DNA of 20,541 nt from Chlamydiota bacterium (GCA_038534095.1 JBCAXK010000030.1:1-20541); one strand, 5' to 3'. Positions 13,158 through 16,855 are shown, numbered from the stretch's first letter. Notes: generated by a model not told the origin, from the sequence alone. Numbers and translations: made by a program.

Positions 13158-13922
13158 ATGATCTTACTTGTCAGCGCTTTTTTATTGGAAGCTCTCCCTC
13201 TCATACGCCACTTTTCTTTGAAAAAACGTGCGCAAAAGCCTTTTCCCCTCTACCAAAATGGAAAAATCGCCCTTGTGATTTCTGGGATGGGAAAGGAGCA
13301 TATGATTTCTAGCCTATCGTACCTAGTAGGAAGATTTCCTGCATTTAGCCACCTCAGCAATATCGGATATGCCGGGCATGGTCAAGCGAGGCTGGGAACC
13401 CTCTACTTAGCCGGTAAGTTAGAACAAAAAAACGCCCCTCCGTTTTATCCCCATCTGCGCAAAGAGTGGGGCCACATTGCCGCAAGCACTTTGGTCAGCG
13501 TGGAAACGCCCGAAATAACCTTCTCTCAAGAGGCACTTTATGATATGGAGGGTTACGCATTTTTTCAAACAGCGCTCCGTTTTACTTCTCTTGAAAATAT
13601 CAGCGTATGGAAAGTCGTGTCTGATGGCCCCAATGATCCCTTCAAAAAAAGTTCTGCTCTTATGGAAAAAGCGGCGCCTCATCTCATCATTTGTTTAGAG
13701 GAGATGGGGCAAAATCACCGAAGCGATTTTTTGCAAGAAAATAGCTCTCTTCCTCCCCATATTCATTTTACTGCTACAGAAAAAATCCAAGCAAAAAAAT
13801 CGCTCCTTTATGCAAAAGAGCTTGGCATCGACACAGCTCCTTTTTTCAAGACAACTTCTTCTCATGCATTCCTGAAAAAGGTGCAACAAGCAATACAAGC
13901 GAGCGCCCCAACCTATGCATGA
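13158..13922 (+). CDS. Nucleoside phosphorylase/MTA-SAH nucleosidase superfamily protein
   Basis: ALVISGMGK, SNIGYAG, YDMEGYAF and KVVSD fit the PNP/MtnN fold. Start moved to ATG 13158 because the ORF-track start at 13068 lies inside the tRNA. Confidence 0.8.
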   Translation: MILLVSAFLLEALPLIRHFSLKKRAQKPFPLYQNGKIALVISGMGKEHMISSLSYLVGRFPAFSHLSNIGYAGHGQARLGTLYLAGKLEQKNAPPFYPHLRKEWGHIAASTLVSVETPEITFSQEALYDMEGYAFFQTALRFTSLENISVWKVVSDGPNDPFKKSSALMEKAAPHLIICLEEMGQNHRSDFLQENSSLPPHIHFTATEKIQAKKSLLYAKELGIDTAPFFKTTSSHAFLKKVQQAIQASAPTYA

Positions 13923-14922
13923 AACCATTTATGTAGAAAAAGAAATTGCGAGTCACCGGAGAACCTTGCAGTTTTTACAAAGATTTCGGAGTCCTCGGAT
14001 CATCTCTTGTGACAATTATCAAGAGATTTTTAACCGAAGAAACCAAAGCTTCCGGGAACAGAAAAAGTCTCCCGCATGGATCGTCGCAAAAAAACATGGA
14101 GCGCTTGTCCATTCTATTCCCAAGGATTTTGCCATTGGAGGAGAAAACAACTACTATTTTTCCCATGTGCTCAACTGCCCATACGATTGCACCTACTGTT
14201 TTTTACAAGGGATGTACAGCTCGGCTTATTATGTATTTTTCATCAATTTTGAAGAGGTACAAGCAGAAATAGAGAGGAAAAGCCCTGCGCATTTTTTTTC
14301 TGGCTACGATGGAGATAGCCTTGCCCTAGAACCCAAAACACACTTTCTTCAAGAATTTCTTCCTTTTTTTGCGAGCTGCCCAGAAAACCTTTTGGAGATT
14401 AGAACAAAAAGTCTTTATGTGCGTCCCTTCATGCACCTTTCTCCCATCAAAAACGTGGTCATTGCTTGGAGCTTGAATCCCCAAAACATTGTCTCCTCTT
14501 TGGAAAAGAAAACCCCCTCTTTAGAAAAGCGTCTAGACGCTGCGCAAACCATGCAAAAACGGGGTTGGAAAATCGGTCTTCGTTTTGATCCCGTCATTTT
14601 TCAAGACAACTTTCAAGAAACTACGCGCGCATTTTTTGCGCAAGTCTTTGCAAAAATCAATGCCAAGCTTGTTCATTCAGCAACGCTAGGCGCCTTCCGT
14701 TTGCCGGTGAGTTTTCGTAAACAGATGGAGAAAAATGTAGCTAACAAAAAAATACTGGCGCATGTGCAAGGCAAAGGAAACGAACTCGTTTATGAAAATG
14801 CCTCCGAGCTACTCGACTTTTCCGAAAAAGAACTGGGAAAATATCTTTCAAAAAAACAGCTGTTTCGGATGGACGGGAATCAAGAAAGTGGGCTCGTCAA
14901 TCAAAAAAAACGGGTAAACTAA
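13915..14922 (+). CDS. Spore photoproduct lyase-family radical SAM protein (atypical)
   Basis: CxxxCxxC motif NCPYDCTYCFLQG (C88/C92/C95), LEIRTKS, AWSLNP, EKKTPSLEKRL, GLRFDPVI; 8-nt overlap with the upstream gene. Confidence 0.88.
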   Translation: MHETIYVEKEIASHRRTLQFLQRFRSPRIISCDNYQEIFNRRNQSFREQKKSPAWIVAKKHGALVHSIPKDFAIGGENNYYFSHVLNCPYDCTYCFLQGMYSSAYYVFFINFEEVQAEIERKSPAHFFSGYDGDSLALEPKTHFLQEFLPFFASCPENLLEIRTKSLYVRPFMHLSPIKNVVIAWSLNPQNIVSSLEKKTPSLEKRLDAAQTMQKRGWKIGLRFDPVIFQDNFQETTRAFFAQVFAKINAKLVHSATLGAFRLPVSFRKQMEKNVANKKILAHVQGKGNELVYENASELLDFSEKELGKYLSKKQLFRMDGNQESGLVNQKKRVN

Positions 14923-14924
14923 AA

Positions 14925-14955
14925 GGGCAGGTCTATTGAACCTGCCTCTTCTCTT
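14925..14955 (+). terminator. Intrinsic terminator-like hairpin after the SPL-like gene, possibly bidirectional
   Basis: GGCAGGT-ctattga-ACCTGCC stem-loop just after the stop codon, followed by TCTTCTCTT and preceded by AAAA. Confidence 0.65.
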
Positions 14956-15166
14956 CGTGAATCTGAAAAATCTATTCTTACCTAAAAATGGTGACTATAG
15001 CAGAAAACTTTCTAAAGATAGTCGTAATGATTTAGCTTTACTTTCCATTTATGAATGGCGTTCTTTAAATATTTATCCATTGTAATTCTTGAAATGAAAA
15101 ATTTTAAGAATCACTCTTTATGTTGTTGGATATTTCTTCAGAAGAAATGTTACTTAGGAAAAACGA

Positions 15167-15805
15167 CTAATCTAATTCTTTAGGTTTGCTTGATTCTTCA
15201 GCTTTCTTTGCTTCAGCAATATTCGCGTTTATCCCTTTAAAAATAGCGGTACAAACAGAGGTCAAATAATTCAAAGGATTGACGGACCAATTGAAATTTC
15301 CCCGGTTATAGGCTGATTTTTCTCCACAGAGATAGAGCTCTCGAATAACATAACCACAATGTACTAGAAACAGAGGAGCGAACCCAGCAATGGCAGGAAC
15401 TGCTGATATGGTGCACATAGCAAAAGCAGTAGCAGATCCGATAAAACCAAAAATATGCGTGAAAGTTTCTCTTACAACAGAATACTTCATTCCGTTAGAA
15501 ACAGTTTCGTAGCCTCTCTGCAATTTGTCCCATATACTTTTTATAGGACTGAATTTATCCTTATCTTGCCTAATTTCAACGATGCTATCTAACACATCGC
15601 TTGGTCCTGACTGATTTGTTACCTCAATAAAGGTGCTAATAGCTTTAAAACCATCATTACCGATTTGAGTAGCGACTTCTGAAATTGCATTGAATAAATC
15701 ATTTCCTGGGCGTCTTTTTTCTATCCCAGCGATAATGGGATGTGAAAGAATAGAAACACCTGGTATTCCTGCGAAAACTGGTAAAAGACTTGAAAGACAA
15801 CTCAT
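15167..15805 (-). CDS. Hypothetical membrane protein with long/bilobed hydrophobic segment (Inc-like candidate)
   Basis: 212 aa with AAGGAG RBS. Hydrophobic stretch IFGFIGSATAFAMCTISAVPAIAGFAPLFLVHCGYVI. AT-richer than the dcw genes. Confidence 0.7.
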   Translation of the reverse strand: MSCLSSLLPVFAGIPGVSILSHPIIAGIEKRRPGNDLFNAISEVATQIGNDGFKAISTFIEVTNQSGPSDVLDSIVEIRQDKDKFSPIKSIWDKLQRGYETVSNGMKYSVVRETFTHIFGFIGSATAFAMCTISAVPAIAGFAPLFLVHCGYVIRELYLCGEKSAYNRGNFNWSVNPLNYLTSVCTAIFKGINANIAEAKKAEESSKPKELD

Positions 15806-16159
15806 AAAATTTACTCCTTAAAAATTTTTTGCGTTGATCATACAGAAACCCTCTTTTTGTAGTAATTTTTTTTTCGTATTTTTTTACTAATCCTGTTTTT
15901 TTGAAAATCTCACAAGGTAAAAACCGAAGCCTCTTAAACGACTCGAGACCAGGATTGCTCTGATTGAAAAAGAGATGTAGGATGATCCCTCTATGCATCT
16001 TTTCGTAAGGGCAATCCAAAATTTTTAGATTTAGGAGACACAAGCAAGGTAGACGTATTTTTCATGGTATTGCAAGATAGTGTGTCTACTCCTTCAAAAA
16101 AAATAGGCTTTTTCTGCTTGATCGGACCCTCAAGTACGCAAAAAAAAACAGAAGATTGT

Positions 16160-16855
16160 ATGAAAACGTTACTAATTACTGGGGTTAGCCGAGGTATTGG
16201 GCTTGCTTGCGCCAAGCTCTTATCCTCAAATTATCACATCATTGGTCTAAGCCGCTCACCTCTTAGCTCACCGATACAAAATGTTACCCACTACTCTTGC
16301 GATCTAACCAACCAAAACGCGCTCTTTTCTTGCAAAGCGTTTTTAGAAAAACAGACAATCGATGCGGCAATCTTCTGCGCCGGTAAAGGACTATTTCAGC
16401 ATGTGGAAGAAGTCGCTATCAAGGAGGCTAAAGAGCTCTTCGCGCTCAATTTTTTTAGCGCCGCTTTTTTGACCAAATGGCTACTACCTAAGATGAAGAG
16501 ACAACAGCGCTCTGATCTCATTTTCATTGGATCTGTCGCCTCTAGCGAAGCGGCAAAAAAGAATACATTTTACGGGGCTTCTAAGGCTGCCCTCAAAGCC
16601 TTTACCCGCTCTCTTAGAAAAGAGTGCGCCTCCTCTTCGATCAAGGTAAGCCTTATTGAACCAGGCCTTTGCGCTACAAGTTTTTATGCCCCTTTAGACT
16701 TTGCGCCAAAACAAGAAGAGGGGTATTTTCTCGATCCTACGGAAGTCGCAAAAACGGTCTCTTTTATTTTAGAGACGGAAAACGGGTCCGTTTTTGAAGA
16801 AATCTCCCTCAATCCGCAAAAGCGGGGTATTGAAAAAAAACGCCCTTTTGCGTAG
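16160..16855 (+). CDS. Short-chain dehydrogenase/reductase (SDR)
   Basis: TGVSRGIG Rossmann motif, CDL, CAG, IGS, catalytic YGASK, IEPG. ATG 16160 gives the classical SDR start MKTLLITG. Confidence 0.93.
   Translation: MKTLLITGVSRGIGLACAKLLSSNYHIIGLSRSPLSSPIQNVTHYSCDLTNQNALFSCKAFLEKQTIDAAIFCAGKGLFQHVEEVAIKEAKELFALNFFSAAFLTKWLLPKMKRQQRSDLIFIGSVASSEAAKKNTFYGASKAALKAFTRSLRKECASSSIKVSLIEPGLCATSFYAPLDFAPKQEEGYFLDPTEVAKTVSFILETENGSVFEEISLNPQKRGIEKKRPFA

Follow-up and report, generated by a model that had tools for sequence, protein, structure and literature searches.

The window analyzed here is the whole 20,541-nt stretch of Chlamydiota bacterium DNA (GCA_038534095.1 JBCAXK010000030.1:1-20541), to which all coordinates below refer. 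It carries genes for a nucleosidase-like protein (NUC), for a radical S-adenosylmethionine (SAM) protein of the spore photoproduct (SP) lyase (SPL) family and for a short-chain dehydrogenase/reductase (SDR). Comparison with other genomes showed that this trio is one copy of a widely conserved three-enzyme module; linkage of the radical SAM gene with NUC and its linkage with the SDR gene both extend over Chlamydiota, Pseudomonadota, Planctomycetota, Acidobacteriota and Fusobacteriota. The original prediction, made from the window alone, had left it to a gene-neighbourhood check whether the three genes show conserved linkage at all, and this check found linkage in these five phyla together with a fusion in Fusobacterium. 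The trio probably forms an undescribed enzyme pathway, and no description of it was found in the literature outside subscription journals.

For the radical SAM family, one genome per species was scanned and the best 80 of at least 555 places were taken as loci. They derive mostly from Gammaproteobacteria, with many metagenome-assembled genomes (MAGs) of Methylococcaceae, and furthermore from Simkania, another Chlamydiota MAG, two Planctomycetota and one Holophagae. A radical SAM open reading frame (ORF) could be called in 79 of the 80 loci, the one in L030 running off its contig, and ten loci are cut off on one side. Partners were called with an HMM of the NUC family and by phmmer with the window SDR. 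NUC was located directly upstream on the same strand in 34 of the 79 loci, and in L069 too if an extension of the ORF start is allowed; in L013, NUC is 1.2 kb upstream and an RDD-family gene intervenes. Similarly, a member of the SDR subfamily was found directly downstream in 53 of the 79 loci, with E-values of 1e-35 to 1e-53 as compared to 1e-4 to 1e-7 for other SDRs encoded there, and in L037 it is 2.3 kb off on the opposite strand. Both partners were adjacent in 13 of the 79 loci, NUC occurred without SDR in 17 and SDR without NUC in 36, and among all 79 no locus with both flanks available lacked both partners.

Also, the fine structure of the locus recurs. NUC overruns the start of the radical SAM gene by 8 nt in the window and in 11 other loci (L002, L003, L005, L007, L010, L011, L012, L024, L034, L046 and L058). 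In the Simkania locus (L001), a tRNA-Cys gene, NUC, radical SAM and SDR are directly consecutive, and both there and in the window a Mur ligase gene is found close by. The tRNA-Cys(GCA) gene of L001 (4888-4958, plus strand) is on the same strand as the module, and the one of the window is on the minus strand; relative to the module the two are therefore in opposite orientation. In a quick tree, the search for which was unfinished, the loci without NUC consisted of one Methylococcaceae clade and L079, and the window formed a long branch nearest to Simkania, with 51% identity. By this relationship and by the gene order shared with Simkania, the host looks chlamydial. The locus counts are not independent events, because many loci come from close relatives (related MAGs). 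Given the conserved linkage, the adjacency is far beyond chance.

Other neighbours look lineage-specific, such as ProC-YggT-ArgB in Methylococcaceae, PutP/GlnE/ThiC in marine gammaproteobacteria and a NUDIX gene in three loci, and no photolyase or other repair gene recurred among 58 neighbour ORFs from 16 loci. A gene for a glycosyltransferase of family 2 (GT2) lies just upstream of NUC in 20 loci. In L002, L005, L007, L009, L012, L020 and similar loci, the order at about 3900-8450 is GT2, (PTP-like phosphatase), NUC and radical SAM. These loci belong to marine gammaproteobacterial MAGs, where PutP follows, and to one Planctomycetota MAG; a divergent FabG-like SDR is encoded upstream and the dedicated SDR subfamily is absent. 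In L050 (337-3606), from a methanotrophic symbiont of Bathymodiolus, the upstream gene encodes the large subunit of ribonucleotide reductase with a LAGLIDADG intein.

The closest association of the first two proteins was encountered in Fusobacteriota. An Atlas structure search with NUC retrieved Fusobacteriota clusters of 464 and 619 amino acids that carry PF20903 and match the whole NUC model with a template modelling (TM) score of 0.75. In the plasmid collection, both window proteins matched one strand of a 2.1-Mb record of Fusobacterium vincentii. In a 623-aa ORF of this record, residues 1-199 aligned by hhalign with the NUC profile (E 1.5e-26) and residues 299-622 with that of the radical SAM family (E 5.8e-54). 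An SDR gene begins 212 nt downstream of the fusion, and its product is 30% identical to the window SDR (E 1e-32). Judged by these alignments, F. vincentii adds a fifth phylum to the occurrence of the trio, and its fusion keeps the order of the first two genes. Longer fused forms were not retrieved by the alignment search with NUC, which is weak evidence. The record itself (locus L081, NZ_CP084075.1 1185000-1200000) is filed as a plasmid of 2.1 Mb, for which just one feature is annotated; it probably represents a chromosome. Behind the fusion and the SDR, genes for an MBL-fold hydrolase, a protein of the uracil-DNA glycosylase (UDG) superfamily, a 5-formyl-tetrahydrofolate cyclo-ligase and a SIS-CBS protein follow in a tight run on the same strand.

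In the window, the module and its surroundings comprise the following features.
13011-13081, minus strand: tRNA-Cys(GCA), the upstream boundary of the module (ARAGORN; Rfam tRNA, 62.2 bits)
13158-13922, plus strand: NUC, an adenine-nucleosidase-like protein of 254 aa with the fold of methylthioadenosine/S-adenosylhomocysteine (MTA/SAH) nucleosidases (MTAN), predicted core 1-165 and helical C-terminal domain about 166-249
13915-13922, plus strand: 8-nt overlap between the NUC stop and the ATG of the radical SAM gene, read from the sequence
13915-14922, plus strand: SPL-family radical SAM protein of 335 aa (PF20903), with CX3CX2C at C88/C92/C95
14925-14947, no strand assigned: GC-rich hairpin directly after the radical SAM stop (pattern match only)
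15167-15805, minus strand: orphan ORF of 212 aa that interrupts the module (GC 0.38)
16160-16855, plus strand: classical SDR of 231 aa (PF00106), the ORF being open from 16064

The overlap of NUC and the radical SAM gene had been claimed in the original prediction and was confirmed in the sequence, with the ATG at 13915 and the NUC stop ending at 13922. The NUC ORF is open from a TTG at 13068, and the first 14 bases of this longer version overlap the tRNA-Cys gene. Since the TTG-started ORF runs into the tRNA-Cys gene and since relatives align from 13158, the ATG at 13158 is the start of NUC, as had been assumed. In the case of the SDR, the start is probably Met 16160 because relatives align from there, though the ORF opens at 16064. 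An SDR gene in the same orientation, beyond an AT-rich gene on the opposite strand, had likewise been described correctly, and a 1.2-kb stretch with the orphan ORF lies between. GC contents are 0.30 for the spacer 14923-15166, 0.38 for the orphan ORF and 0.34 for the spacer 15806-16159, and 0.44 for the window. Searches of Pfam, NCBIfam and PADLOC gave no match for the orphan ORF (15167-15805), and it is without counterpart in the other loci, where the SDR gene abuts or overlaps the radical SAM gene. Because the trio is contiguous in Simkania L001, the 1.2-kb AT-rich piece with the orphan ORF looks like an insertion into an operon, and the orphan ORF is probably an inserted gene and not part of the pathway. 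In its product, a hydrophobic segment is present at the N-terminus and residues 115-154 form another hydrophobic stretch of about 40 residues, a pattern that we take to recall chlamydial inclusion-membrane proteins.

The hairpin at 14925-14947 has an 8-bp stem with five GC pairs and is terminator-like on both strands; the count of terminator-like sites in the region was not above that in shuffled sequence. Rfam, applied at gathering thresholds to the window and ten loci, detected only two tRNAs and neither a riboswitch nor another RNA upstream of the module. A defence system was considered and rejected, as none of four proteins matched PADLOC models.

The radical SAM protein matched PF20903 SPL with 58.4 bits (threshold 27; 7.4e-16). 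Against TIGR04070, the equivalog model for SplB, it scored 82.8 bits, where the cutoff is 400, and against TIGR03886, the model for the SPL-family protein of non-sporulators, 53.7 bits, where the cutoff is 437.55. Positions 5-260 of TIGR04070 are collinear with residues 4-254. The only sequence relatives with solved structures were those of Geobacillus SP lyase, found with 7.8e-9 for the single sequence and with 1.4e-20 for a 26-sequence profile. A structure model (predicted local distance difference test (pLDDT) 81.6) gave a TM score of 0.73 to SP lyase over about 349 columns, as compared to 0.42 for the next radical SAM fold, and sequence identity in the structural alignment with SPL was 17%. 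The family comprises 2734 relatives at E<=1e-3. These proteins are basic, with a pI of 9.4 for the window protein and a family median of 8.9. A role as QueL/queuine lyase had been considered and was dropped when no NCBIfam model matched.

In order to compare functional residues, HMMER alignments with SPL were counted residue by residue, using chain index = native number + 27 as checked on Cys90/94/97; the resulting assignments rest on alignments with about 17-25% identity. According to the available part of the SPL paper (PMC3467042), Cys90/94/97 are cluster ligands, and Asp143, Lys174, Ser195 and Arg273 make cluster and SAM contacts. All of these appear to be kept. C88/C92/C95 correspond to the three cluster ligands in an intact CX3CX2C motif and are invariant in 26 of 26 relatives, and D134, K165, S186 and R262 occupy the positions of Asp143, Lys174, Ser195 and Arg273, all invariant or nearly so. 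The same part of that paper describes Cys140 as the hydrogen-atom donor and Tyr98 as strictly conserved, assigns binding of the dihydrothymine O4 to Arg193 and Glu268 and base binding to Tyr339, and mentions a hairpin tip with a possible function in flipping of the lesion. The position of Cys140 is taken by Tyr131, which is invariant, that of Tyr98 by Phe96, without exception in the 26 relatives (Tyr being found in the F. vincentii fusion), and that of Arg193 by the invariant Ala184. Glu268 falls in a gap, being an insertion relative to the 26-sequence family profile, and Tyr339 and the hairpin tip lie beyond the aligned part. Sequence alignment ends before the DNA-flipping hairpin (Arg304/Tyr305, Lys309), and the model has a short beta-hairpin at 284-293 with a pLDDT near 61. 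The position of Clostridium Cys77 and Ser76 is also beyond the alignment, and Ile74 is reached when residues are counted back from the first cluster Cys.

Invariant cysteines in the 26-sequence alignment are restricted to the three cluster ligands. In 14 of the 26 relatives, mainly gammaproteobacterial ones, a Cys is found two residues after the Cys140-aligned position, and it may be a lineage-specific hydrogen donor. At this place, the window protein has Gly133 and chlamydial members have Gly or Ala. Alignments and model together show a protein with a predicted SP-lyase fold, an apparently intact cluster and SAM site and a changed substrate pocket. The view that it is not a canonical SP lyase, taken by the original prediction, is therefore supported by the replacement of the fourth cysteine, Tyr98 and Arg193 and by the 82.8 bits versus 400.

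NUC of the window, when searched alone, had no Pfam match, PF01048 included, and a word-index search retrieved a single near-identical protein. By an exhaustive HMMER search, 2225 representatives of the family were obtained at E<=1e-3, most of them 245-285 aa long. A profile made from 44 relatives matched MTA/SAH nucleosidases in the PDB (best 6.5e-9), and PF01048 was matched by 31 of the 44. Among NCBIfam models (E<=0.01), futalosine hydrolase was matched by 33 of the 44 relatives, the 'nucleosidase' model by 29, MTAN by 21 and HpnG by one. The scores seen against TIGR03664 (MqnB), the MtnN equivalogs and TIGR03468 (HpnG) were all under cutoff, for example 30.7 as compared to 124.7 bits, and the only NCBIfam match of the window NUC was NF004168 (16.8 bits, cutoff 129). 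The long NUC ORFs of L069 and L076 (about 473 aa) had been considered as forms with an extra domain; they contain no further Pfam domain and are probably due to start-codon over-extension.

The structure model of NUC (pLDDT 93.7) had at least 500 PDB matches at E<=1e-3 in Foldseek. Among the matches listed, all are MTAN, futalosine hydrolase or CT263 of C. trachomatis, with E about 1e-11 for MTANs and CT263; CT263 is among the best structural matches (TMt 0.75), and the structural alignments listed with MTANs have 13-19% identity. The core of about 165 aa is shorter than MtnN/Pfs and similar to CT263; it is followed by a helical domain (residues 166-249 or so, about 85 aa) that has no counterpart in the MTAN matches. 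All 44 relatives have E11, E131 (in D-M-E), K152, S155 and D156, and the alignment with the S. pneumoniae and N. meningitidis MTANs brings their M-E and S-D motifs into register. We take the invariant residues to correspond to Glu12, Glu174 and Asp197 of E. coli MTAN, which presumably are the water-activating and N7-protonating residues. By its alignments and model, NUC shows itself as a predicted hydrolase of the MTAN fold in which the acid/base residues of adenine nucleosidases are retained and to which a helical C-terminal domain is added.

The SDR matched PF00106 with 107.8 bits (6.2e-31). In the alignment of its subfamily, all 15 sequences share G8, G12, G14, N97, S125, Y138 and K142, which covers the TGxxxGIG motif and the N-S-Y-K tetrad. 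Residue conservation shows a distinct subfamily with what is predicted to be a full N-S-Y-K catalytic tetrad. Arg32 is also invariant and follows strand 2, a placement that presumably suggests use of NADP(H), so the enzyme is probably NADP(H)-dependent.

With regard to function, we tentatively favour, as a possible rather than a probable reading, that the three proteins act on one small molecule, by analogy with known pairs of radical SAM enzymes and adenine-removing hydrolases. The radical SAM enzyme would cleave SAM, and the 5'-deoxyadenosyl radical would add to an sp2 carbon of the substrate, whereby SAM would be consumed and its adenosyl group incorporated in the product. NUC, coupled or fused, would then hydrolyse adenine from the adduct and leave a ribosyl-extended product. 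The freed ribose carbonyl would be reduced (or oxidised) by the NADP(H)-type SDR, and in the 20 loci with an upstream GT2 the product may then be glycosylated. A small molecule is a more likely substrate than DNA because no partner is as common as the SDR, the gene of which overlaps that for the radical SAM protein, and an adenosyl-bearing product of SAM cleavage is the most likely substrate of NUC because NUC is dedicated and fused. Many gammaproteobacteria presumably already carry a housekeeping MTAN, so that a second enzyme just for free 5'-deoxyadenosine (5'-dAdo) would be redundant. Adduct processing is further favoured by the futalosine hydrolase matches of NUC relatives, which are more frequent than MTAN matches (33 versus 21 of 44), and by the likeness of NUC to CT263. 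It is also favoured by the GT2 gene upstream of NUC in 20 loci, which parallels HpnI, and by the presence of a reductase, as this is what a ribosyl intermediate needs. In the same sense, the pathway-specific PNP/MTAN-family partners HpnG and MqnB/MTAN all process adenosylated products: HpnG does so together with HpnH, as reported in the available part of PMC13459092, and MqnB/MTAN acts after the adenosine-adding step of the futalosine route, as reported in the available part of PMC3937554.

Several points weigh against this adduct-processing scheme. Most radical SAM enzymes abstract a hydrogen atom, and the available part of PMC3467042 describes the same for SPL itself. In 36 loci, NUC is missing within 6 kb yet the SDR is kept, which would be easier to understand if NUC were accessory, and the SDR subfamily is absent in 17 loci, so that each of the partners is dispensable at the locus. 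The futalosine hydrolase matches of NUC relatives are all below cutoff (e.g. 30.7 versus 124.7 bits) and the HpnG model matches just one of 44. The basic radical SAM proteins (median pI 8.9) would suit a nucleic-acid substrate too, and the counts come from the best 80 of at least 555 loci, dominated by related MAGs and not independent. A more specific version of the scheme seems somewhat doubtful: radical adenosylation might have evolved independently on an SP-lyase scaffold, with a common metabolite or lipid being adenosylated, trimmed to the ribosyl stage and converted through reduction by the SDR to a compound with a C5 polyol extension, which would be glycosylated in loci with GT2.

An explanation that we regard as unlikely, and that has the most to recommend it among the alternatives, is by-product clearance, which had been the main idea of the original prediction. 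The radical SAM enzyme would abstract hydrogen from a small molecule at the stoichiometric expense of SAM, NUC would only hydrolyse inhibitory 5'-deoxyadenosine, and the SDR would reduce a carbonyl made by radical chemistry, for example by dehydration or by C-N/C-C cleavage. The catalytic residues of MTAN are kept in NUC, and the 36 loci with SDR and without NUC are as would be expected for a dispensable helper. A pair of radical SAM dehydratase and SDR reductase, AprD4/AprD3, has reportedly been described and is counted for this explanation. It agrees with the hydrogen-abstraction chemistry of SPL, and the finding of Tyr131 and Phe96 in place of the hydrogen-relay residues Cys140 and Tyr98, as these are described in the available part of PMC3467042, would fit a lost relay for SAM regeneration. 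However, for the job of a housekeeping MTAN, it would be a large investment to keep a dedicated family with about 2225 representatives, which is coupled to the radical SAM enzyme in translation and fused to it in one phylum. The excess of futalosine hydrolase over MTAN matches (33 versus 21 of 44 relatives) also speaks against clearance, and the conserved extra C-terminal domain of NUC is left unexplained.

Less plausible still, and in our estimate improbable, is a variant nucleic-acid lyase that would act on a DNA or RNA lesion other than classical SP, or on SP with a different hydrogen donor, with NUC removing 5'-dAdo. The protein keeps the whole SPL architecture (TM 0.73 over about 349 columns, with a short hairpin at 284-293 in the model) and its Arg262 corresponds to Arg273 of SPL, which contacts phosphate and SAM. 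The basic character of the proteins (pI 9.4 here, median 8.9), the UDG-superfamily gene in the downstream run of F. vincentii and the Cys two residues past the Cys140-aligned position in 14 of 26 relatives could be understood in the same way. In contrast, such a lyase has no obvious need for an SDR, which is the commonest partner (53 of 79) and overlaps the radical SAM gene. Moreover, the thymine-O4 ligand Arg193 is replaced by an invariant Ala and Glu268 falls in a gap, the window protein is without a fourth Cys at either candidate position, and photolyase or other repair genes did not recur among the 58 neighbour ORFs of 16 loci. Finally, a canonical SP lyase orthologous to SplB with coincidental neighbours is very improbable: the Pfam match, SPL as the best PDB and structural match and the public names of relatives ('spore photoproduct lyase' or 'DNA repair photolyase') are in its favour, but 82.8 bits against a TIGR04070 cutoff of 400, 17% identity to SPL in the structural alignment and the loss of Cys140, Tyr98 and Arg193 are against it, and coincidental neighbours are ruled out by conservation across five phyla and fusion in one.

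The remainder of the window has the following gene content. From 1136 to 10937, on the minus strand, there is a division and cell-wall cluster reaching from murF to ftsQ, and names read from the translations are MurF, MraY, MurD, a LysM/NlpD-like protein, FtsW, MurG, an 811-aa MurC-Ddl and an FtsQ-like protein. A 554-aa protein encoded at 11007-12671 on the plus strand contains a eukaryote-type ubiquitin C-terminal hydrolase domain (PF00443, 1.6e-10, residues 120-530) and may serve an intracellular bacterium as a deubiquitinase directed at the host. A 480-aa ORF at 16794-18236 (plus strand), the listed TTG start of which overlaps the end of the SDR gene, matched the chlamydial variant chaperonin GroEL3 weakly (36 bits, cutoff 600). 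At 18285-20402 (plus strand), a TreS-type maltose glucosyltransferase is encoded whose score is just under cutoff (646 versus 719 bits).

SP lyase is the textbook radical SAM enzyme of DNA repair, and its many relatives in non-sporulators are annotated by name only. A large SPL branch with 2734 relatives is now tied to a hydrolase and an SDR that are both dedicated to it, and the residues by which SP repair is defined have been lost from this branch. What was a habit of annotation thereby becomes a testable problem of enzymology with three defined proteins, and in genome annotation the names spore photoproduct lyase and DNA photolyase are unsuited to the radical SAM genes of the module. If NUC processes an adenosyl adduct, the short list of known radical adenosylation systems would gain a new scaffold, and new metabolites would be implied. 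Radical adenosylation, if this reading is true, would mean an unrecognised metabolite class in Chlamydiota, many Gammaproteobacteria, Planctomycetota, Acidobacteriota and Fusobacteriota. If NUC only clears 5'-dAdo, it would be, to our knowledge, the first dedicated and fused by-product scavenger of a radical SAM enzyme.

Among known systems, SplB of Geobacillus/Bacillus (PDB 4FHC and related) has the fold, the CX3CX2C motif and the cluster and SAM residues in common with the radical SAM protein, and its N-terminal region is collinear. The window protein has a shorter hairpin, which could not be aligned by sequence. Unlike SplB, the window family occurs in non-sporulating phyla, and the available part of PMC3467042 does not mention for SplB the linkage with an MTAN-like protein and/or an SDR that was always found in this family.

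MtnN/Pfs shares fold and catalytic motifs with NUC, and it is established that MtnN/Pfs hydrolyses 5'-dAdo released by radical SAM enzymes. NUC differs by its additional helical domain of about 85 aa and by being tied or fused to one radical SAM family.

With HpnH/HpnG(/HpnI), the module has in common that a radical SAM protein and an adenine-removing enzyme of the purine nucleoside phosphorylase (PNP)/MTAN superfamily are encoded side by side, and GT2 genes are present in 20 loci here. However, the radical SAM protein is of the SPL family and has no HpnH match, and the HpnG model fits one of 44 NUC relatives. Chlamydiota and Fusobacteriota hosts presumably do not make hopanoids. In the hopanoid route, as described in the available part of PMC13459092, the adenosyl group of SAM enters the product and the ribosyl intermediate then becomes a polyol. 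The module described here includes an SDR, whereas the step from ribosylhopane to bacteriohopanetetrol (BHT) is called non-enzymatic or unassigned in that part of the paper.

Similarly, MqnE/MqnB, an aminofutalosine synthase with a futalosine hydrolase or MTAN, has an MTAN-family hydrolase partner in common with the module, and futalosine hydrolase is the NCBIfam model closest to the NUC family (33 of 44). Scores of NUC are below cutoff, and the radical SAM protein belongs to another type than MqnE/MqnC. A link to the futalosine pathway through CT263/CT262 had been considered and was rejected. CT263 overlaps mqnD and not a radical SAM gene, CT262 being MqnD, and environmental (non-Chlamydiaceae) chlamydiae are reported to use the classical menaquinone route, according to the available part of PMC3937554. 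If the favoured adduct-processing reading is right, the module would work like HpnH/HpnG(/HpnI) and MqnE/MqnB and would be a member of neither. It would join a radical SAM enzyme and an MTAN-family partner on a new scaffold, with the SDR as a new third component.

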